Assembly: GCA_963844715.1 (NCBI GenBank)
Contig: CAWJPJ010000006.1
Location: 960,001-1,024,000, forward strand
From: an uncultured Phycisphaerales bacterium
Lineage (GTDB): Bacteria; Planctomycetota; Phycisphaerae; Tepidisphaerales; Tepidisphaeraceae
Direction of reading: 5' to 3'
DNA length: 64,000 nucleotides
The position numbers were made by a program, and so were the translations under genes. The number at the start of each line of letters is the position of its first letter. Positions within the stretch are counted from its first letter, which is position 1. Under the pieces are notes generated by a model, which saw nothing but the letters and a program-made list of their open reading frames with translations, did not search any database and had not been told where the DNA came from. Positions 1,120-13,362 of this stretch are shown piece by piece.

Positions 1120-1932
1120 ATGATCGTCAAACCCTACTTGCAAATGGGGATCGGCAAGCTCCGCTTCTACCTGAACCACGCGCAGATTCCGACCCGTCCG
1201 GACGACATGGCGTTAATTCGATTGAAGAACCGCCATCGGGGGCGGCGATGTTTTGTCATCGGGACCGGGCCGAGCCTGCGCATGGCCGATTTGGAGCGCC
1301 TCGCCGAGCGCGGCGAACTTTGCCTCGCGTCCAATAATATTTTTCGAGCCTTCGACGCGACGCGCTGGCGGCCAACCTACTACGCCGTAGAGGACAACGA
1401 CCTGGCGACGAAATCCCGCGAGCAGATTAACCAGCTTGTGCATTGCCCCACGTTCATCCCCAAAAACCTGCTGCCGATTCTCGGGCGCACGCGCAACCGG
1501 ACGTGCTTTCGCTTTTTGAAGCGCGTAGCGCCGCCGGGTCACCCACGATTTTCACGCAATTTGCTCCGCGGGATCAACTGCGGAGGCACGGTCACTTACA
1601 CGTTGCTCCAAGTCGCGGCTTGGATGGGTGCCGCGGAGGCATATCTGCTCGGCGTCGATTTCTCATACGATCTGGGGGAACTGACGCTCACCGGCGAAAA
1701 TCGCAAGTTTCATACCTACGTCTATGCGACGCGCACGCGTCGCAACCATTTTGTTGCGGATTATTTCAAGGACGGCCAAACGATCCCCGCGCCGGATTTG
1801 GAGTGTTCCCTTCTTGCTTATCAAACGGCGCAGGTTCAATGTCACGAGACCGGCCGGATGAAGATTTTTAATGCCACGCGCGGCGGACGCCTGGAGGTCT
1901 TCCAACGCGTTGATTTCGATTCATTGATCTAA
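1120..1932 (+). CDS. DUF115 / Maf / MptE-like family protein (sialyltransferase-like fold)
   Basis: CFVIGTGPSL, LASNNIF, GGTVTY..LQVAAWMG..YLLGVDFSY and IFNATRGGRLEVF motifs. ATG 1120 chosen as start. Confidence 0.75.
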   Translation: MIVKPYLQMGIGKLRFYLNHAQIPTRPDDMALIRLKNRHRGRRCFVIGTGPSLRMADLERLAERGELCLASNNIFRAFDATRWRPTYYAVEDNDLATKSREQINQLVHCPTFIPKNLLPILGRTRNRTCFRFLKRVAPPGHPRFSRNLLRGINCGGTVTYTLLQVAAWMGAAEAYLLGVDFSYDLGELTLTGENRKFHTYVYATRTRRNHFVADYFKDGQTIPAPDLECSLLAYQTAQVQCHETGRMKIFNATRGGRLEVFQRVDFDSLI

Positions 1933-1948
1933 GCATCCGCCCGCAACG

Positions 1949-2930
1949 ATGACCTCCCTTATTCCAAACATCGCCGTCGGAGCAACCGCCGGGATCGGCC
2001 GGCGCGGCCAGCGCCTCTCCATCATGATTCCGACGTTTAACTGCGCCGCGTATTTGCGCGCACGCTGGCCTCCCTGCTGGAACAAAACGACAATATCGCC
2101 GACGCCCAGATCGTCATTGTGGATGACGCGTCCACCCAGGACGATCCGCGCCAGGCCGCGGAGGACGTCTGGCCCGGCCGGACGGATGTCATTCGCCAAT
2201 CGCGAAACGTCGGGCTTGTCGCCAATTTCAACCATTGCCTCGAGATTGCCGAACGTCCATGGGTACATATTCTTCACGGCGATGACGTGGCGCTTCCCAG
2301 AGCGTACGAGGAATTCGACCGCGTCACGTCTCTCTATCCGCACGCGCCCGCCATCTTCGGTCGCTCGGTCTTCATGGAAGCCCGGGGATTCTGGAAAGGG
2401 ACAACGCCGATTCTGGGCGACGACGAGCGCGGCATTTTGAATTACCGCCCGCTGGATTGGATCACCTGTCCGGTCCAGTGCGCCGGCGTTCTGGTTCGGC
2501 GTGACGAAATCCGAAAGCTCGGCGGCTTCGACCCTCATTTCACGCACGCCGCCGATTGGAATCTCTGGTGGCGCATTGCCAGAACCGGCCGCGCCGCCTT
2601 CACCAACCTGTGCGTCGGCGGTTACCGAATGTTCGAAGGCAATCACTCCTCCACCCTGCGCCGCAGCGGCGCCAATCTCGCGAGGGGATCGACCAGATCA
2701 ACCGCCTCAGTCCCGATTTGCCCGCCGATTCTTCGCCGCGAGAAATTTGGCGACCAATGGTCGAGCAAATCGCCCGACAATGCCGGAGTTTTGAAAATGA
2801 CCCGCAAGCGCTGGCCCAAAATCTGGCGCTGCTCGATTTGCTGCCCCCCGAGGCGATCTCCTGGCGCATTCGCTCCCAATTGCAACGACGATATTCGCGA
2901 TCGATAGGTTCAAGAAAGCACGCCGCATAA
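1949..2930 (+). CDS. Family 2 glycosyltransferase (two apparent indels, ~2060 and ~2680)
   Basis: LSIMIPTFN, IVIVDDASTQD, HILHGDD and ADWNLWWRIA motifs spread over three frames. Confidence 0.8.
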
Positions 2931-2935
2931 TTGCC

Positions 2936-3887
2936 ATGGCGCCGACGGTTTCCATCATCCTCTGCACACGAAACCGGGCGGCGAGATTGCGCACAACTTT
3001 AGAGACAATCGGGCGATGCCGGATTCCCGCCGATTTAGCCGCGGAATTGCTCATAGTCGACAACGGTTCGACAGACGAGACTCCCCAGGTTGTCCGCCAA
3101 TTCCATCTTCCCAACATGCCCGTGCGATATGTTTGTGAACCCACGCCCGGCCAGTCGCGCGCTCGTAACCGCGGCCTGGCGGAGGGGGACGGCAGCATCC
3201 TGCTCTTTACCGACGACGACGTGCGCGTTCCGCCCGATTGGATCGACGGAATGTGCCGGCCCATTCTCGAAGGCTCGGCCGATGCCATCGCCGGCGGTGT
3301 CCGTTTCCCGCCGGAATTGGATCGACAACTCCGCATGTGCAGAAGCTGGTTTGCCTCGACGGAGGATATCCTTCCGGATCGGCCGGATCGCTTCGTCGGC
3401 GCCAACATGGCTTTCAGCCGCGACGTCCTGGATCGAGTGGCCGCCTTCGAAGTCGAACTCGGCCCCGGCGCCCTCGGCTTCGGCGACGAAACCCTCTTCA
3501 GTTTCCAGCTTCGCCAGGCGGGGTATCGCCTCGTCACTCGCTTTGACGTGGCGGTTGAACACCATTTCGATCCGGCCCGATTGACCCGGTCAAAAATGCT
3601 CGAGGCGGCCCGCCAGATGGGCCGTTCCAAAGCCTACGTCGCCTACCACTGGCATCACGCCGATTTGCCCACTCGCATAAGTTTTCGAGCGCCGGAGCTG
3701 GTACGGATTTGGCTCGGCCGCCTGGCGCAATTCGGCCAAACCCCCCGCGCGGGAAATGAAGCGGATCGAATCAATCGAATTGCGCCGGCAATTCCTCCGC
3801 GAATCCCAACGGCCGCGTAATTATGCCAAACGCGGCCTCATCAAGCTCCACGGCGACCTGCCGACCATCCAACAATTGGTCCGATAA
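2936..3887 (+). CDS. Family 2 glycosyltransferase (indel ~3780)
   Basis: SIILCTRNRA, IVDNGSTD, FTDDD, GANMAF motifs; C-terminus continues in another frame to TAA 3887. Confidence 0.85.
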
Positions 3888-3981
3888 AAATTCACGTCAC
3901 GGGGACCGCACGCCCGATGATCTGCCACAAGGCCATGGACTGCGCCCAGGCTGCGTCGTTTGTCAGCCGCGAGGAGACGAG

Positions 3982-6109
3982 TTGAATCATGTCCAATCAC
4001 AACCGTCGTGGGTGCCTCTGGCGATGCTGTGCGCCAGGCTCGACAGCAACATCGGGGCCTTGCGCCGCGCGACCCAAAACTCGCCCAGGATTTGCAATCG
4101 CACCAGCCCCGCCAGACCTATTGCATCCAAACAGCGGGCGACAATCTCGTGGTCGGCGTGCAGACGGCAGATTCCGTCCGCCCCCTCCCGCAAACGCTTC
4201 CTCCGGCCAGGGCGCTCCAGATCACGGCTCAGATTTACCCCGAGGGCCGCTACAACCAAAGCCTTTTAATCGCCGACGAAGACCTCGGCTGGCTTTGCAA
4301 TCGCGTCTATCAACTTCCCAACGAATCGTATCAAACGCACAAATGGCCCCTCTATCTCGTCTTCCGCGACCTCGAGCGGTTCTGGATGATCCTGCATATC
4401 CATGATTGGCATGAGTTGGTGACCGACCTGCGCGTCCGCCTATTTGTCGGCGAAGACGCTCCCGATCGATTTCGCCGCAGCTTGACCGAAGATCTCTCCT
4501 CCCCTTGGCCGTCGAATTCCGTCGTGGCCGATCCGACGAACTGGCCCGAGGGCGAATCGGCTGCCGAGTTGCTTCGGGCCGCCGCTGAAGATCTGGATAA
4601 AAAACAGGCCCGGCTCAAGCAGCAATCGCGCGCGATCTTCGCCGATCGCACGCCGGGATCTTTCCTCGACAAAATCAAGACCAATCAGCCGCTGAAAGTC
4701 ATGGGCGTCTGCACCCGCCATTCGGTTTTCGTTCGCTACTCGATGCGCGACTGGCTCGAGGCGTTCGAGCGCCTCGGCCATCGCACGCACCTCGTCACGG
4801 AAACCGCCGATTATCAGATCGTCAGCGCAACCGCCGTTTCCCAGGCCCTGGTCGACTTTAAGCCCGACCTGGTCCTGATGATCAATCACTACCGCGCGGA
4901 AATGGGAGTCGTTCCGGATCAGGTGCCTTTCGTCATGTGGGCGCAGGATTGGTGTGACAACATCACCTGTTCGACCGCCGGCGCAGTGCAGGGGCCGATG
5001 GATTATGTCCTCGGGCACAACCCGATGCGAATGGCCCACGCCCACGGATATCCGATCAGTCGATACCTCCCGGCGGTGGTGGCCGTCAACGACGCGCGAT
5101 TTCAACCCCGCCCGCTGACTGCCGCCGAATTGACGGAATACGCCTGCGACGTCTCCTTTGTGAGCAACGCCGGCATTCCGGCGCGGACGCTCTTGGACCA
5201 GGAAATCCGCCGCATCGGCTCCCCCGAATTCGGCCGAGCTCTGAACTTGATCTTCGCCGAACTCGAATCGGTCTATCAAAACGGCGGCTCGATCACCCAA
5301 ATCGGCGGCATCACTCCGATGCTCGTTCGCCATTTGAAAGCGGCCGGGATTGGGCTTGCGCGTGAACAGTTTCGCGCCCTGGTCGATTTCTTCTCCCATT
5401 CGATCAACAGCGCGCTCTTCCGCCACCAGGCGCTGCAATGGGTCGCCGACCTCGGCGTCGATCTGCGCATTTACGGGCGCGGCTGGGATCGCCATCCGAC
5501 GCTTTCGCGCTTTGCCCGCGGCGTCGCCGACAATCTCAACCAACTGCCTCTGATCTATCAGGCGAGCAAAATCAATCTTCAGATCAGCCCGCATGGGGTG
5601 ATGCACCAGCGCGTCATGGAGAGCCTGGCCGCCGGCGGGTTTTTTCTTTTTCGCAGTTGCTCGGGCGACCAGGTCGGCCGGCATTTTAAAGCCGTTTTGG
5701 ATTGGTGCGCCGCCAATCAGATCACCGACGACGAAATGTTGCGCAGCGCGCCCCCCAACCGATTCAGGACCATCTTTCCGAGATCGCGCGCCTGCTGCAT
5801 CGCGATCCGTTCGACAAGCAAACCTTCGGCTTCGTGCCGTACCTGCAATTCCACGCTAAACACGGCTATCTCGAACTGGCCGACCTCCTCTGGGGAGACG
5901 ACGCCCAGGCGGTCAGCTTCGATTCAGCAAGCGAACTGGCCGCCAAAGTCCGATATTTTCTTCCGAATCCGGCCGAGCGATCCCGCGGAATCGAGTCGAT
6001 GCGCCGGCCTGTCATGGACCGATATACCTATCTGGCCACCGTCCGCAGGCTGCTGAATTTCATCGCCGCCGACCTGGCCGGGCAGTCCCAAGCGAAAACG
6101 GCGGCATGA
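3982..6109 (+). CDS. Maf-like N-terminus plus CgeB/Glyco_trans_1_2-type glycosyltransferase (indels ~4070, ~5755)
   Basis: GAGGAG RBS before TTG 3982; NIGAL..RDPKLA N-terminus; C-terminal CDVSFVSN, LRIYGRGW, IYQASKINL, HQRVMESLAAGGF motifs. Confidence 0.65.
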
Positions 6110-7353: not shown

Positions 7354-7989
7354 ATGCAAACGTGCGATGCCCCCCAACCCGTTGAAGTCGCCGGGCTCAC
7401 GCTCTTCGGCCTGGGTCACACCGACGAATTGCTGATGCGCCTGCCGGTGCGAAAGCACATCGTGCCCGTTGCGCTTCACCGCCTCCCCGAGCCCGCGTGT
7501 TACGCCGAGTTTCGCTTTTTTCTGCGCCCCGTCCCGGTCACCACCGACTACGTCGGCTTCGTCTCCTGCCGCTGGTCAGAAAAATTCCCGGCCGCGACGC
7601 CGATCGATCAGCTCCATCAATTGCCCCTCTCGCCAAACTGCGTCTACGCCCCCTCCCCCACCGGCGGAATTGACTGGGTCGCGCACAGCAACCATGTCCA
7701 CCCCGGCCTGGCCGCCCTGATCCCCGAGCTAGCCGCCGCCATGGGCATCGCGCTCCTGCCCAAAGCTCCCACACTCTGGACCGGCAACTTCATTTGCCAC
7801 CGCCAAATATGGGAGTCCTACCAAACGGCATTCATCGCCGCCTCCCAATACGCCGCCCAAGGCTGGCGCACCGACCCGCCATTCAGCGTCGGCCGTTACG
7901 ATCCAACCCGCAAAGTCGCCTACCTCATGGAACGAGCCACAATGGCCTACTTCGCATCAAGGTCAGATTTGAAAATCGTGAAGATCTGA
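7354..7989 (+). CDS. Hypothetical protein, possibly glycan-related (DUF4422-like)
   Basis: 211-aa ORF in operon orientation with YAE, DYVGFVS and AYLMER segments. Confidence 0.5.
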   Translation: MQTCDAPQPVEVAGLTLFGLGHTDELLMRLPVRKHIVPVALHRLPEPACYAEFRFFLRPVPVTTDYVGFVSCRWSEKFPAATPIDQLHQLPLSPNCVYAPSPTGGIDWVAHSNHVHPGLAALIPELAAAMGIALLPKAPTLWTGNFICHRQIWESYQTAFIAASQYAAQGWRTDPPFSVGRYDPTRKVAYLMERATMAYFASRSDLKIVKI

Positions 7990-8013: not shown

Positions 8014-8056
8014 CCAAAATCGGAATGACAAGACACCCGTTGACCTTTCCTGCGTT
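8014..8056 (+). repeat. Left att-like repeat, copy 1
   Basis: ccaaaatcggaatgacaagacacccgttgacctttcctgcgtt; 38/43 identical to 11342-11384; begins with the antisense tRNA-Pro 3' end (aaaatcggNNtga). Confidence 0.8.
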
Positions 8057-8346
8057 TTCTAAGCGGAAACAAGGTTCGATGCGCTCCCATTTGGAATTTG
8101 ACTTCAGGCGAAATAGGCGAGTTCGACATCCCGTCACTCCCTGCCCGTCCGGGCAGTTTGGCTGCGGCTTGTTCGGTAGGTTGCCCACGTAGAGCCGCGC
8201 TCAGTTCGGCCCCGCGCCGGCAGAACCTTCGGGCTCCAGTCCAGTCCCACCCGCTCGGGAAACTCGCCGCAAGCAGGCGGAGGGGTAAGGGAATCCGGGT
8301 TATCTGAGCCGCGGGCGCGACATCCGTCCACATACAACTCGGTCCG

Positions 8347-8374
8347 TTGTCCATGCGAAGATTGGTGGTATATT
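8347..8374 (+). promoter_or_regulatory. Sigma70-type promoter for gad
   Basis: TTGTCC-16 nt-TATATT with extended -10 TG, about 60 nt upstream of ATG 8437. Confidence 0.5.
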
Positions 8375-8436
8375 GTGCCTGAAATCGCTTGGTCCGCACA
8401 AGCGCAAAATCCAACCCCCTATCAGGCAAATCAATC

Positions 8437-9819
8437 ATGGCTCTCTCGACTGCACTACCAGGCGATCACAACGAAGATATCTTCGCCTCCGAGGACTTGG
8501 CCAACCCGCTTCCGAAAAAGCATTTTCCGCGCCATCAGCGGGATCCGCGGCGAATTTACCAGGCGGTGCGCGACGAACTGCTTCTGGATGGGAACTCGCG
8601 GCAGAACCTGGCCACGTTTTGCCAAACCTGGATCGAGCCGGAGGTCCGCCAGCTTCTGGACGATTGCATTGACAAGAACATGGTCGATAAGGATGAGTAT
8701 CCGCAGACCGCGGAAATCGAGAACCGCTGCGCGCATATGTTGGCGAACCTCTGGAACTCGCCGGATGCGGCGGCTTCAGTCGGCTGCTCGACCACCGGTT
8801 CGAGCGAAGCGGCGATGCTGGGCGGCATGGCCATGAAATGGCGCTGGCGCGCGATTCGCAAGGCGGCGGGAAAACCCGCCGAACGTCCCAATCTCATCAC
8901 CGGTCCGGTGCAGATCTGCTGGCATAAATTCGCCCGTTACTGGGACGTCGAACTTCGCGAAATCCCGATGGAAGAGGGCCGGCTGCTCATGAACCCGCAG
9001 GAGGTGCTTGCCCGCTGTGATGAAAACACCATCGGCGTCGTGCCCACCCTGGGGGTCACATTCGACGGACGCTACGAACCGGTCAAGGCAGTCGCCGATG
9101 CCTTGGATGAATTTCAAAAGGAGTCGGGGCTCGATATTCCCATCCACGTGGACGCCGCCAGCGGCGGTTTTCTTGCTCCGTTCTGCGCGCCCGACCTGGT
9201 GTGGGATTTTCGCCTGCCGCGCGTGAAGTCAATCAACACTTCGGGCCATAAATACGGACTGGCTCCGCTGGGCTGCGGATGGGTTGTGTGGCGCCAGCGA
9301 AGTGATTTGCCCGAGGATCTGATCTTCAACGTCAATTATCTCGGCGGCAACATGCCGACGTTCGCCTTAAATTTCTCGCGGCCGGGCGGACAAGTCATAG
9401 CGCAGTACTACAACTTTGTACGGCTCGGGCGCGATGGATACACCCAGGTGCAGTCCGCCTGCTATCGGACCGCGCAGTATCTGGCCAAAGAGATCGCCGC
9501 CCTGGGCCCCTTCGAGATGATCTTCGACGGCGACCCCGTCGGCGGCATTCCAGCCATTTGCTGGAGGATTCCCAAAGGAATAAACCCCGGCTACACCCTT
9601 TACGATCTGGCCGAGCGGCTGACTTTGCGCGGCTGGCAGGTGCCCGCCTATTCCCTGCCGGCGAATCAGCAGGACACGGTTGTGCAGCGGATTATCATTC
9701 GCCTGGGAGTCAGCCGCGATATGGCGGGGCTGCTGGTCGACAATTTCAGGGCCGCCGTCGACTTCCTGACCACGCATCCGACCATGCGTCAGCCGGACGG
9801 CACCGCGTTTCATCACTGA
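8437..9819 (+). CDS. gadB: Glutamate decarboxylase (PLP-dependent, group II)
   Basis: [42 protein letters not shown] (PLP lysine), [14 protein letters not shown]. Confidence 0.95.
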
Positions 9820-9843
9820 TTGAAGAATGGAACCGGTTTCACA

Positions 9844-11139
9844 ATGAATCTCAAGTCAGGTTTTCTGCCTTGGTTGATCTGGGTTTTGGCGGCGGTGTTC
9901 GTGGTCTTTAACTACGTTCAACAGGTCGTCCCCAATGTCATTGCCGTTGATTTAAGTCAAGCGTTTAACGCAAGTGGGAGCACGCTGGGAAATATTGCCG
10001 CCGCTTATTTCTATGCGTACGCGCTTCTGCAAATTCCGGTTGGGCTAATCGTGGATCGCTTCGGCACGCGCTGGCCGCTGGTTATTGCAATCCTCGCGGC
10101 CGGCATCGGTACGCTTGGATTCGCCCGAGCGCATGATTCCGGCAGCGCGCAGCTTGCCCGATTGCTTATGGGCGCTAGCGCCGCTTTCTCGTTCATCGGT
10201 TGCCTGAAATTGGCGCAGGCATGGTTCCCGCCATCGAAGTTTTCCACTTTGGCTGGGATGACAAATACGGCAGGAATGCTCGGCGCCGCCAGCGGCGCGC
10301 CTGTCGCGGTGCTGGTAAAAGCAATCGGCTGGCGCGCGGCAGTGGCTTGGATGGGCGGCGCGGAGATGGTTCTGGCGATCCTTGTTTTCGCGGTGGTTCG
10401 TGATCGTCCGGCGGACAAGGGCTCATCCCCAGCCACGCATCCATCCGCAAAAACATCTGAAAGATTGCTTGGCGTGCTGGCCGATCCGCAGGTGTGGATC
10501 AATGGCATATACGCGACGACCATCAGCCTGGTGTTTGTGGCTTTTGGCGGACTTTGGGGCGCGGGCTACATCCAAAAGGTTTATGGTTTGGACACGGTGG
10601 GCGCTGCCGGCGCCGGGTCTTATCTGTTCCTTGGCGGCATCGCAGGAAGTCTGTTCTTCGGCTGGTTTTCCGACTATCTCGGGCGGCGGAAAATCCCGAT
10701 GGTTGTGGCCGGCGTTGGGGCGCTGGCCGCCATGTCCGGACTGCTTTATCTGCCAGGACTGCCGCTGGTTGAATTTAAGGCGGGGCTTTTTCTGGTGGGA
10801 TGTTTCAGCAGCGCTAACATTATTTCCTATGCGGTTGCCCGCGATCTCTATCCGAGGCTGGCCGGCTTTTCGATTGGATTCTTAAGCACCTGTTATTTCG
10901 CCGGCAGCGCGGCGTCGCAGCCGCTGGTCGGAATGCTGCTTGAGCGCGGCCACTCCAACGGCAGCGTTACGGGACTTGCCGCCTTGACCGTGGGCGACTA
11001 TCGCTTTGCCCTATCGCCGCTGGTGGGATTTATGTTTGTGGGATTAATTGCCTCGTTGCTGCTGAAGGAACCTTCAACGGAGAACATAGCCGCGACCTCG
11101 TCGGTTTCCCTAAAGACCGCGGATGTTGGCCAGTCGTAG
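9844..11139 (+). CDS. MFS transporter
   Basis: About 12 hydrophobic segments; motif A GLIVDRFGTR and GWFSDYLGRRK. Confidence 0.9.
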   Translation: MNLKSGFLPWLIWVLAAVFVVFNYVQQVVPNVIAVDLSQAFNASGSTLGNIAAAYFYAYALLQIPVGLIVDRFGTRWPLVIAILAAGIGTLGFARAHDSGSAQLARLLMGASAAFSFIGCLKLAQAWFPPSKFSTLAGMTNTAGMLGAASGAPVAVLVKAIGWRAAVAWMGGAEMVLAILVFAVVRDRPADKGSSPATHPSAKTSERLLGVLADPQVWINGIYATTISLVFVAFGGLWGAGYIQKVYGLDTVGAAGAGSYLFLGGIAGSLFFGWFSDYLGRRKIPMVVAGVGALAAMSGLLYLPGLPLVEFKAGLFLVGCFSSANIISYAVARDLYPRLAGFSIGFLSTCYFAGSAASQPLVGMLLERGHSNGSVTGLAALTVGDYRFALSPLVGFMFVGLIASLLLKEPSTENIAATSSVSLKTADVGQS

Positions 11140-11189
11140 GGAAAGACTGGAGCGCATCAATCCAAGAGGTACAGTCCCACCTGGACATT

Positions 11190-11288
11190 AGGCTCAATGG
11201 CGCAACGCTCGGTTTTGAAATGAGGAAGCCCTTCAACGCGCTGGCCAAAGGGCTCGTTGTCCCGTCAAATTGGAGTGATAGGATTTGA
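11190..11288 (+). pseudogene. Probable C-terminal relic of a tRNA-Pro-targeting large serine recombinase
   Basis: Reads RLNGATLGFEMRKPFNALAKGLVVPSNWSDRI*, with no start codon in frame before it, and ends inside the tRNA-like att sequence. Resembles recombinase C-termini recalled from planctomycetes (not verified by search). Confidence 0.55.
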
Positions 11289-11384
11289 ACCGATGACCTG
11301 TCGGCGCGGCAACCGCTCTAAAACGCGTTCCCCACGGACTTCCAAAATCGGGGTGACAAGTCACCAGTTGAACTTTCCTGCGTT
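11271..11384. repeat. Junction between the cassettes: degenerate tRNA-like copy followed by left att-like repeat copy 2
   Basis: gtgataggatttgaacc matches the tRNA T-arm; 11299-11356 aligns to 13235-13294 (~50/60); 11342-11384 aligns to 8014-8056. Confidence 0.8.
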
Positions 11385-11656
11385 CTTCGCTCAGAAATGA
11401 GGGCGTAAAGCGGCGCGGTGCATCGCCAGTTATAACGACCTCGTTCAGTTCCCGGACGGGGTATACGCCGTAGATTGCCAGCCCCTTCAGTGTTGGTTCA
11501 ACCTGAAATGGAACGAGGGCGATTCCCATTCGTGACATCGAAAGGTCCATGAGTCTGATTGAGAGCTGGCGATGTCATTTGAACGAGTCAGCCTTCCAGA
11601 ATAGGCCGGCGACGGACCAGAACATCGACACCAAACGAGGGGGAGTCGCCCAGCAT

Positions 11657-11698
11657 TATAGCACCGCTATAGACACCGACGTATAGCAGTGCTATAGT
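11657..11698 (+). promoter_or_regulatory. Two TetR-type operators overlapping a sigma70 promoter
   Basis: TATAGC-acc-GCTATA (11657-11671) and TATAGCA-g-TGCTATA (11682-11696); TAGACA-17 nt-TATAGT with extended TG. Confidence 0.75.
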
Positions 11699-11704
11699 GC
11701 TCGG

Positions 11705-12262
11705 ATGACTACGCGAGAGACGCTGGTAACAGCGGCGATAAAAATCATCGAAAGGGACGGGGCGGCGGAGTTTTCCACGCGGGCGGTCTGCACGCTCGCG
11801 AAGGTAACCGCACCGACGCTCTATCACCATTTCGGCAGTGCCGACGGCCTGCTGAGCGCCGCCATCGAGGAGGCGTTCAACCAGTTCCTTGAACGCAAAA
11901 AGGCCGTTGCGCGACAGCCCGATTCTGAGTCTGCTCTGCGGCACGGCTGGAACAACTACGTCCGCTTTGCCGCGGAGCGCCCGCGACTCTACGCGGCGAT
12001 GATTTCCCGCCTTCTTCTGGGAGCCAAGATCCCGGCTGCCGAGCAGGCGAGATTGCACTTGATGGCACGCATCAAGGCCGTCGCCGACAAGGGACGGCTC
12101 GCCATCGCCGCCGACGCCGCCGCCGATCTCGTCTGGGCCTCCTCCCACGCAGCCGCTCTTCTCTACGTCATGGGGAAACCCGATCAAGTCGTTATCGACG
12201 GCCTGCGTGACCGGGCGATGGGGATAGTCTTCAAACCAACGACAAAAGGAAAAAACAAATGA
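11705..12262 (+). CDS. TetR/AcrR family transcriptional regulator
   Basis: N-terminal HTH: STRAVCTLAKVTAPTLYHHFGSADGL. Confidence 0.9.
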   Translation: MTTRETLVTAAIKIIERDGAAEFSTRAVCTLAKVTAPTLYHHFGSADGLLSAAIEEAFNQFLERKKAVARQPDSESALRHGWNNYVRFAAERPRLYAAMISRLLLGAKIPAAEQARLHLMARIKAVADKGRLAIAADAAADLVWASSHAAALLYVMGKPDQVVIDGLRDRAMGIVFKPTTKGKNK

Positions 12263-13227
12263 AAGTCTTTGTCACCGGAGGCTCCGGCTTCCTTGGTTCG
12301 CGTATGATCAAACAGCTTGCGGCCGACGGTCACAACGTTCTTGCCCTCACCCGGTCTGAGGCGTCTGATGGGAAAATTCGTTCGCTGGGAGCGACCCCGT
12401 TGCGGGGTGACATTGAGCGGCCCGAGTCGCTATCTCTGCCCGCGATCGATGCCGTCATCCATGCGGCGGCCTACTTCCGTTTCGCAGGTCCACGTAAACC
12501 CTATTTCAACGCGAACGTGGTGGGTACCTCCGCGATCCTGAAAGCAGCGGAGCAGGCCGGAGCAAAGACCTTCATTTACGTGAGCGCCGGCGCGGTTGTC
12601 ATGGACAACCGGGGCACGGCCGTCCACAACGCCGACGAGAGTGCCCCCACATTTCCCGACAGCTTCTCGGGCTACATCGCGAGCAAGGCACGCGGTGAAG
12701 CGGCGGTGCTGGCGGCGAACAAAGCCGGCTTCCGCACGGTCGCCATTCGGCCACCTGCCATCTGGGGGCCGAACGACAGGTTCAGCCACGAACTCCCACG
12801 CGTCATTAAATCCGGCCAGTTCGCCTTCATCGATCGCGGCAACTACGCATTCGCAACTTGCCACGTCGATAACGTGATCGAGGCCGTGCAAGGTGCGCTC
12901 GATCGCGGCACCGGCGGACGGGCCTACTTCGTTGCCGACCGCGAGCCCACGAGCTTTCGCAGATTCGTCGCCACGATCGCGGAGAGGCAGGGGTTGTCCG
13001 TCGACCGGCTACGGTCCATCCCTTATCGCCTGGCGTTCACGTTGGGACGAGTCATGGAACTCGTAGCGGCCCTCAGGTTCTCCAAGACTGACCCGCCGTT
13101 GTCACGTACGATGGTGCGGATGATCGGGCGGGAATTCACAACCAACGACGCGGCCGCGCGCCGTGAGCTGGGCTACGTTGGCAAGACCTCAAGGGCTGAG
13201 GGTATGGCGACATATCGCAGCGCTTAG
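12259..13227 (+). CDS. NAD-dependent epimerase / 3-beta-HSD-like extended SDR
   Basis: VFVTGGSGFLG, VIHAAA, YIASK (YxxxK), IRPPAIWGP; ATGA overlap with tetR. Confidence 0.9.
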   Translation: MKVFVTGGSGFLGSRMIKQLAADGHNVLALTRSEASDGKIRSLGATPLRGDIERPESLSLPAIDAVIHAAAYFRFAGPRKPYFNANVVGTSAILKAAEQAGAKTFIYVSAGAVVMDNRGTAVHNADESAPTFPDSFSGYIASKARGEAAVLAANKAGFRTVAIRPPAIWGPNDRFSHELPRVIKSGQFAFIDRGNYAFATCHVDNVIEAVQGALDRGTGGRAYFVADREPTSFRRFVATIAERQGLSVDRLRSIPYRLAFTLGRVMELVAALRFSKTDPPLSRTMVRMIGREFTTNDAAARRELGYVGKTSRAEGMATYRSA

Positions 13228-13234
13228 GGCGGCA

Positions 13235-13294
13235 TGTCGCCGCGGCGACCGCTCTAAACCGAACGCCCCACGGACTACCGAAAAATCGGGGTGA
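13235..13294 (+). repeat. Right att-like arm abutting the tRNA 3' end
   Basis: Direct repeat of 11299-11356; contains the perfect 14-bp palindrome gtcgccgcggcgac. Confidence 0.75.
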
Positions 13295-13362
13295 TAGGAT
13301 TTGAACCTACGACCTCTTGGTCCCGAACCAAGTCGCTCTAAACCAAACTGAGCTACACCCCG
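13286..13362 (-). tRNA. tRNA-Pro (anticodon CGG), CCA not encoded
   Basis: CGGGGTG/CACCCCG acceptor stem, D arm GCTC..GAGC, CTTGG-TTCGGGA-CCAAG anticodon arm, GTAGG-TTCAAAT-CCTAT T arm. Confidence 0.97.

Follow-up and report, generated by a model that had tools for sequence, protein, structure and literature searches.

Two recombinase-less gene units stacked behind tRNA-Pro(CGG) in a Tepidisphaeraceae genome, probably inserted by a large serine recombinase that is now a stub

Introduction

In the genome of an uncultured Phycisphaerales bacterium of the family Tepidisphaeraceae (Planctomycetota; GenBank assembly GCA_963844715.1), four cargo genes stand in tandem between repeated arms behind a proline tRNA gene, accompanied by neither integrase nor transfer genes. 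How did these genes come to be stacked there, which enzyme placed them, and could they still move? The locus lies in a stretch of 64,000 nucleotides (contig CAWJPJ010000006.1, positions 960,001 to 1,024,000 of the forward strand), hereafter the window, and coordinates without a prefix refer to it. The source assembly is approximately 85% complete and is labelled G000; other G and L numbers denote family genomes and loci, respectively. The initial annotation of 8014-13362 proposed two successive integrations at one site, leaving an array that, if mobilised in trans, would amount to integron-like gene capture. Our comparison of the locus with its relatives indicates that two recombinase-less units are stacked behind tRNA-Pro(CGG), that they were probably inserted one after the other by a large serine recombinase (LSR) of which a gene stub remains, and that they have probably decayed since.

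Two units behind tRNA-Pro(CGG)

The single tRNA gene of the window is tRNA-Pro(CGG), which is intact and lies on the minus strand at 13286-13362, at the end of the array as had been described; an Rfam scan of the stretch returned nothing besides this tRNA. Its last bases form a B' half-site, with a CG core at 13287-13288 on the plus strand. Both families of repeats reported previously are real. The two copies of the first, arm A (8014-8056 and 11342-11384), are identical at 38 of 43 positions, and those of the second, arm B (11299-11356 and 13235-13294), share 52 aligned bases of approximately 60, with gaps. Arm A follows a CG core on the plus strand at each of two junctions, i.e., junction 1 (8021-8056, core 8021-8022), where it appears as a P-type half-site and the split-off 3' tail of an LSR gene, with two changes within the predicted zinc-domain motif, and junction 2 (11349-11400, core 11349-11350). 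Both copies in the window are altered at otherwise near-invariant positions. Metagenome contigs from runs X1 and X2 cross junction 1 and one X1 contig crosses junction 2 (X1 may be the source sample itself); the junctions are, therefore, not assembly errors.

Arm B had been taken for the arm of a foreign element, an interpretation that has to be abandoned. It consists of tRNA-Pro sequence whose anticodon arm has been replaced by a 14-bp palindrome, with a decayed 5' part behind it, and is thus a host-side copy of the tRNA. Two such copies, both on the minus strand, have a 25-base spacer in common. Copy 1 with its spacer (11271-11348) is decayed, the palindrome again replacing the anticodon arm, and its 3' end represents a B-type half-site with the core TG instead of CG. 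Copy 2 with its spacer (13235-13286) is truncated, contains a perfect 14-bp palindrome at 13236-13249, and forms the right end of unit 2. The tRNA-Pro copies fold no better than shuffled sequences.

Adjoining copy 1 are the last 29-35 codons of an LSR gene (11181-11288, plus strand), which bear the left (P') half-site. The reading frame of this stub crosses the core and stops inside the tRNA-like copy, and its product is 62% identical over 29 amino acids to an intact enzyme (tblastn, E 1e-5). Unit 1, comprising a gadB-like gene and a transporter gene, had been thought to run up to arm B. It ends 78 bases before that, at 11270, where the LSR stub meets the tRNA-like copy, a likely decoy target. 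Unit 2, with a TetR-type regulator and an oxidoreductase, lies between the two related pieces of tRNA copy plus spacer. The attachment ends of both units can still be recognised, although altered: unit 1 has the TG mentioned above as its right core, and unit 2 is without a right arm of the element type. The description of both as elements reduced to arms and cargo holds in the sense that the two units together contain four cargo genes and, of a recombinase, only the stub.

The serine recombinase and its crossover site

The enzyme was traced through 22 open reading frames (ORFs) with PF07508 in 20 loci of the family, which were chosen by position and match shape and are not a random sample. Eleven of these end at tRNA-Pro, a Pro-type half-site or arm A, and share a C-terminal motif that reads through the junction, in the intact relatives across the CG core and into the 3' end of tRNA-Pro. 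Among the remaining ORFs, some lie at tRNA-Ser or at tRNA-Ala, including one at an Ala-like fragment, and others encode a second, longer recombinase. Eight further top matches include five that end at tRNA-Pro and one at a Pro-type half-site. The enzymes of L111 and L118 exceed the cut-offs of PF00239, PF07508, and PF13408 (Resolvase, Recombinase, and Zn-ribbon); both score far under those of CcrB (98 bits at best vs. 900) and XisF. Profile A1, built from nine LSR proteins with such ends, matched 56 of the 141 family genomes, sister clades included, at E<=1e-40; 34 matches exceed 500 bits, and some 20 retain the C-terminal part only, a number of them at contig edges. The unpublished genome G004 is included in the tallies of profile A1 and of the R2 end class (see below) and contributes locus L250 to the end modules, but no conclusion rests on it. 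LSR relatives were also encountered on eight viral contigs, in one case at tRNA-Pro.

About the CG, arm A is the inverted counterpart of the left arm on the enzyme side. Counted from this core, bases 16-24 of arm A and bases 11-19 of the tRNA are identical at seven of nine positions, a distal motif shifted by 5 bp. In the LI serine integrase the zinc-domain motif is placed at 16-24 in attP and at 11-19 in attB (Rutherford et al., 2013; PMC3783163). By this register, arm A is the predicted P half-site of an LSR. The left half-site is nearly free: the left flank of arm A junctions is LSR-coding in only 8 of 163 cases, with two more judged to be frameshifted by eye, and the consensus fades left of -5. 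The proposal that all junctions switch at the same point, directly behind a "tga", was not borne out: in 12 of 18 loci the resident tRNA and the outermost arm A have parted by +2..+5 after the CG, and in only 1 of the 18 are they identical at both +2..+5 and +8..+10. These comparisons, together with the symmetry of the half-sites about the CG, make a crossover at or adjoining this dinucleotide likely.

The enzyme family is wider than its tRNA-Pro members. Close relatives occur at tRNA-Ser ends (L112, L113, L361) and at tRNA-Ala or Ala-like ends (L114, L121, L359), and a more distant recombinase clade is found at tRNA-Ser in L115, L119, and L124-L126. In six loci a second serine recombinase of 570-700 amino acids is situated a few kb from the tRNA-targeting enzyme (L108:9694-11409, L110:10252-12255, L116, L123, L356, L360), whereas in L285 the longer serine recombinase stands on its own. 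This longer second enzyme recalls two-recombinase modules.

Stacks across the family

A 22-base arm A pattern (at most 2 mismatches), searched across these planctomycete genomes, occurs in 62 of 141, while its reversed control matches none; the arm A repeats are, therefore, not due to chance. With a stricter pattern, 104 stretches were recovered from the named genome collection; among the 80 of these that were listed, 75 have planctomycete titles, many of them Tepidisphaeraceae or Phycisphaerales, and 5 do not. Rows of arm A reach eight junctions in L055 and seven each in L056 and L057. The 85 distinct arm-A units shorter than 8 kb have a median length of 1656 bases and contain no full LSR gene, although seven contain stubs. 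All 21 arm-A units that end directly on an intact tRNA do so on tRNA-Pro, and all three isoacceptors (anticodons) are represented. A tRNA-Pro was also found beyond the long rows of G153 and G073. The source genome contains six arm A copies, four of which lie within 5.3 kb behind a tRNA-Pro; the other two are far from any tRNA-Pro (C8:388553 and a weak copy at C5:185134).

Of 152 cargo ORFs called (at least 85 amino acids), 142 were scanned, and the matches are mostly small enzymes and regulators. Methyl- and acetyltransferases, short-chain dehydrogenases/reductases, TetR regulators, DinB and beta-lactamase-fold proteins are represented, together with a few defence-type genes and transposases, and many ORFs belong to no family.

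Some arm A copies depart from the usual row. In L131:440-480 and L301:427-480, arm A meets a second, inverted arm A head-to-head at the core, which would be expected if the symmetric CG permits both orientations. Two opposed copies lie 300 bases apart in L300:3479-3783, and in L060:9367-9584 (G024) three to four copies follow each other at approximately 100 bases without cargo, as empty or duplicated scaffolds.

Remnants or mobile cassettes?

Are such units simply what is left of larger islands? It is conceivable, though we would not call it likely, that all of them are random, deletion-trimmed and immobile remnants of once-autonomous islands. LSR stubs of many lengths would be explained in this way, as would the changes at near-invariant positions of arm A, the TG core and the eroded R4-type remnant of the window (see below), and the transposases and the four-helix-bundle gene that have landed within units. 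What random deletion does not explain is that non-coding ends of fixed length occur on unrelated cargo in 20 of 141 genomes, and that a whole unit of 1.2 kb is common to different genera.

These non-coding ends became apparent when unit ends were clustered. Of 91 ends, 52 are singletons, and one class, of 10 members that include unit 1, ends in LSR stubs. Three other classes (R2, R3, and R4) are apparently non-coding and start with an inverted B-type half-site. Taken together, the fetched loci contain 66 such end modules (42 R2, 11 R3, and 13 R4). In those with an identifiable core, the next CG follows after 145-150 bases for R2, 60-65 for R3, and 54 for R4; no core was found for nine R2, one R3, and three R4 modules. 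The conservation of R2 begins abruptly at the half-site. For 43 end-module units the left end could be traced, and 42 of these begin with arm A; none of the 43 matches any of 23 recombinase queries. R2 occurs in 20 and R3 in 9 of the 141 family genomes, while 400 other genomes of the phylum yielded a single, chance-like match to R2. An autonomous element with an R2 end was found neither in viral contigs nor among the family loci.

Cargo with these ends is occasionally shared at the DNA level. An orphan cassette in the source genome (arm A, methyltransferase, R2; L264:1380-2620, i.e., G000:C8:387320-388560) lies a long way from the nearest tRNA-Pro and has an R2-type end immediately upstream; from just inside arm A into R2 it is 79% identical over 1041 bases to a cassette in a row of G150, a different genus and a different context. 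Secondly, G000:C4 and G151 have an RNase H cargo in common, at 84% identity. In the third case, L056 and L161 share a cargo (95.7% over 697 bases) that is fitted with R2 in the former and with R3 in the latter, the sequences switching at the inverted half-site. The RNase H gene belongs to a second stack of the source genome, which consists of two units at tRNA-Pro(TGG) (L001:4840-8075, i.e., G000:C4:88840-92075). The R2 end of the first unit is interrupted by a gene with short tandem repeats, which we take to be four-helix-bundle-like; the second unit has DUF4326/DUF488 cargo and an R3 end, and run X2 carries a variant of it with 35 differences in 543 bases.

One could thus suppose a live, dedicated cassette system, in which purpose-built passengers (arm A, cargo, and R2, R3, or R4) are moved by a visiting LSR and the inverted half-site is the point of capture or exchange. 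The sharp left edge of the end modules and their fixed distance to the next CG, the regular arm A start, the consistent lack of a recombinase, the methyltransferase cassette common to two genera, and the exchange of R2 for R3 all favor this. On the other hand, neither unit of the window ends in an intact module, unit 1 terminating in an LSR stub, more than half of the unit ends are singletons, only three cargoes among approximately 90 units are shared at the DNA level, no circles were seen in the runs examined, and the cargo ORFs point both ways (73 forward vs. 79 reverse, some of them perhaps spurious). We consider such a system doubtful. An extended form of the idea, which we put forward tentatively and regard as unlikely, is that the LSR would act as a travelling integron integrase: R2, R3, and R4 would convert one or two genes into passengers, open to excision and to stacking behind the three tRNA-Pro genes or their decoys by whichever enzyme arrives, cargo would be captured or exchanged at the inverted half-site, and the free left half-site would make the target reusable without a directionality factor.

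That a tyrosine recombinase built the stack, via inverted repeats around an 8-bp spacer or via a T-loop overlap, with the LSR stub being incidental, is very improbable. The source genome does have 38 tyrosine-recombinase matches, the core resembles inverted repeats of the form 10+8+10, and a T-loop-like 7-mer stands at the beginning of the end modules. The partner spacers, however, differ at +2..+5 in the 12 of 18 loci noted above, which fits a 2-bp core better than a long overlap; LSR genes cross the junction itself; the 5-bp shift is a signature of LSRs (PMC3783163); and tyrosine-recombinase matches are near arm A in two loci only (L195, L294) and inside none of the 43 end-module units. It is hardly credible that the arms represent a dispersed repeat without any connection to tRNA-Pro integration: despite 13 exact copies of the arm B palindrome and two remote arm A copies in the source genome, this idea holds only for the palindrome and is largely refuted for arm A by the four of six copies behind tRNA-Pro, by the 21 of 21 units ending on this tRNA, and by the continuation of an LSR reading frame into arm A.

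Palindrome-bearing tRNA copies

Of the 141 genomes, 9 carry copies of tRNA-Pro with the palindrome; most of these copies stand next to tRNA-Pro, and many are accompanied by a small GIY-YIG gene (PF01541). Each genome's copies match its own tRNA, and the replacement by the palindrome, therefore, seems to recur independently. In G128 the order is LSR stub, palindrome-bearing tRNA copy and tRNA-Pro, as in the window. The 14-base palindrome itself is dispersed, its exact copies in the source genome often being located in short tandem-repeat tracts by tRNA-Ser ends. In L002:3830-4600 (G000:C6:558830-559600), tandem units of 289 bases behind tRNA-Pro(GGG) each consist of a palindrome-bearing tRNA copy and a small GIY-YIG gene, and ahead of the tRNA-Pro(GGG) stands a 5'-half copy that likewise contains this palindrome. 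The GIY-YIG gene adjoins the hairpin at L002 and L007 but is absent in the window. Small GIY-YIG genes beside palindromic SRM repeats have been described for the Ssn nucleases (Chenal et al., 2025; PMC11893778). The likeness to Ssn/SRM concerns arm B only; palindrome-bearing tRNA copies in other loci flank PF01541 genes. The main text of the Ssn paper contains no mention of tRNA, and the palindrome of the window, compared by eye with the SRM pattern given there, does not fit it (PMC11893778).

Cargo genes of the window and their surroundings

Both cargo genes of unit 1 are on the plus strand and encode a GadB-like glutamate decarboxylase (8437-9819; TIGR01788, 635 bits vs. a cut-off of 380; PF00282) and a major facilitator superfamily (MFS) transporter (9844-11139; PF07690, E 6.5e-40). 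Unit 2 encodes, also on the plus strand, a TetR-family regulator (11705-12262; PF00440) and a NAD-dependent epimerase/3-beta-hydroxysteroid dehydrogenase-family oxidoreductase (12259-13227; PF01073, PF01370). A sigma70-like site (10/12) precedes the TetR gene at 11670-11698, one of three such sites found vs. 1.8 expected in shuffles, and terminator-like sites in the window are at chance level. An R4-type end-module remnant that had escaped earlier notice, consisting of an inverted B-type half-site and a hairpin, lies at 8121-8175 (plus strand), 100 bases past junction 1; its own junction is eroded, and it folds no better than shuffles.

By protein search, the 140 other family genomes contain no match to the decarboxylase at E<=1e-60 and none to the unit 2 oxidoreductase at E<=1e-50; relatives with close copies of these genes but without the arms, which would have told against the initial annotation, were not found. 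A DNA search of relatives for the cargo, with or without arms, returned only the arms (two candidates per genome were scored). Close GadB relatives, with 95-97% identity, are present in metagenomes. The lack of close matches within the family supports the view that the cargo of these units is foreign to it. By family assignment, this cargo includes an acid-resistance-type decarboxylase with a transporter, carried by none of the other family genomes examined.

Upstream of the window, at a distance of 4-7 kb (G000:C6:952626-956065), 24 tRNA genes are clustered, a second tRNA-Pro(CGG) among them. Immediately left of junction 1, a 211-amino-acid ORF (7354-7989) is without a Pfam or NCBIfam match. 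Several glycosyltransferase ORFs at 1921-6109 seem to be frameshifted, and indels of 1-2 bases distinguish short-read contigs from the window (8401, 11343, 13333), which suggests that long-read errors are present in the assembly.

Proposed mechanism and its weak points

We propose that a circular element with an attP site (element end, CG, arm A) would recombine with an attB site made up of any flank, the CG and the tRNA 3' end. With the exchange at the last bases of the tRNA, the gene would stay whole and a usable target would be remade, and later elements would, therefore, stack on the tRNA-proximal side, each losing its recombinase after stacking. Unit 1 likely entered the palindrome-bearing tRNA copy as a decoy attB, after which an internal deletion would have removed its recombinase. 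Unit 2 may either have entered a second tandem tRNA copy and then lost its right end, or have arrived as an already recombinase-less circle, with the spacer as its left arm. Of the initial annotation, the succession of integrations with hybrid att junctions behind tRNA-Pro can be retained, but not the use of one site by both, as unit 1 appears to have entered a tRNA copy. Present-day movement of either unit would need an outside enzyme, and no autonomous element adjoins them in the window. With TG as its right core, unit 1 is probably unable to move by itself; an enzyme arriving from elsewhere could in principle excise unit 2, or both units together, with arm A and the tRNA as the end points.

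Several observations weigh against stacking by an LSR at tRNA-Pro. Beyond the long rows of G144, G150, G151, and G154, the 11-20 kb fetched revealed no tRNA-Pro, and members of this enzyme clade are located at tRNA-Ser and tRNA-Ala as well. In the source genome, at its 85% completeness, profile A1 detects no intact cognate enzyme, its sole match being the stub (11181-11285, E 9.9e-4). The figures of the junction consensus are inflated by the search patterns from +6 outward and, for the loci recovered from the named genome collection, from -1 outward. A third spacer copy at junction 1 is only weakly suggested: the left flank of this junction resembles the present flank of the tRNA (0 of 161 controls score as high), but it is unlike the flank of junction 2 (34 of 161 controls score as high). 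Neither a circle with an attP junction nor an empty-site joint was found for the window in four runs, all of them low-depth contigs, and there is no exact empty site for comparison; in G001 the downstream side of the tRNA abuts a cyclophilin gene in a different arrangement, and in G002 the contig ends in a repeat at this locus.

Other candidates for enzymes and excision products were set aside. Two PF07508 matches in the source genome (C6:399k and C6:702k) belong to other elements that are not at Pro sites, and a crude motif scan of 24 loci gave no credible recombinase. In the contigs, a 346-base skip inside gadB stems from repeats or another organism, and a loose contig end at 13286 that resembles an LSR end joined at the core probably derives from another organism. 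At L001, a skip of 1766 bases onto the tRNA has a short side of 21 bases only and was not counted as excision.

Comparison with known systems

The general kind of system has been published before and the copy in the window looks decayed. What is added is that the enzyme, the target, and the likely crossover can be named for a hotspot of gene collection, which is present in 62 of 141 genomes of a family of soil bacteria that has received little study. The reuse of its own product site by a normally one-way serine integrase is thereby made testable. For the stacking of genes, a recombinase for which the tRNA half of the target suffices and which tolerates repeated insertions would be useful, and the tRNA-Ser and tRNA-Ala relatives could serve to map specificity.

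In staphylococci, the staphylococcal cassette chromosome (SCC) forms tandem composites at a gene 3' end, built by the LSRs of the Ccr type, and ccr-less members exist. The tRNA-Pro stacks share this LSR-built tandem arrangement with recombinase-less members, but the enzyme falls far short of CcrB in score, as noted above, and the target is not rlmH. Integrons are rows of short, recombinase-less gene units growing at one end through the tyrosine recombinase IntI. The integron-like character proposed initially survives as an analogy only, in the row of short units without a recombinase that grows at one end; serine chemistry, cargo in both directions (73 vs. 79), and at least one unit with its own promoter-like site set the stacks apart. 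No PF00589 match, as expected for an IntI-type recombinase, was found in or beside the stretch or inside the 43 end-module units.

With the LI/A118 integrases the enzyme has the domain set, the central dinucleotide and the motif register in common, but its left half-site is nearly free and the site is apparently reused, whereas LI/A118 integrases are one-way without a directionality factor (PMC3783163). Serine integrases make up less than 1% in proteobacterial islands (2026 preprint, 10.64898/2026.01.13.699239). In a review of integrative elements, targets at gene ends are attributed to tyrosine recombinases and those inside genes to serine recombinases, its tRNA example being a tandem of an integrative and mobilizable element and an integrative and conjugative element (PMC5704250). 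It also describes cis-mobilizable elements (CIMEs), which have lost integration and transfer genes but kept their att sites, new elements entering the remade site beside the target gene (Pavlovic, 2004 and Bellanger, 2011, as cited in PMC5704250). The life cycle of CIME accretion is the same as that proposed here, although in our case an LSR uses the tRNA end and the units are much smaller (PMC5704250).

The closest parallel is provided by the ssrA islands of Dehalococcoides, which are arranged in tandem and use the CcrB-like serine recombinase DsiB, whose gene overlaps the att site with its 3' end (McMurdie et al., 2011; PMC3146451). These genomic islands have a 20-bp direct repeat and a six-gene integration module (DsiA, ParB, Mom, and others), and 15 islands without this module were proposed to be cis-mobilizable (PMC3146451). 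Both systems, thus, have tandem units behind the 3' end of a structural RNA, a recombinase gene end overlapping the att site, and many recombinase-less units (PMC3146451). Here, however, the target is tRNA-Pro with its three isoacceptors instead of ssrA, in a planctomycete family, and the tmRNA gene of the source genome is on another contig; the units are mostly 0.6-3 kb with one or two genes, and P- and B-type half-sites around a CG take the place of the 20-bp repeat. Fixed-length end modules with an inverted half-site and tRNA copies serving as decoys are not described in those parts of the Dehalococcoides account that we draw on (PMC3146451). More generally, neither these two features nor this tRNA-Pro system as a whole was found described in the open-access literature searched. 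The tRNA-Pro stack, then, works like the ssrA islands and CIMEs, while it is itself not an ssrA island, an SCC element, or an integron.

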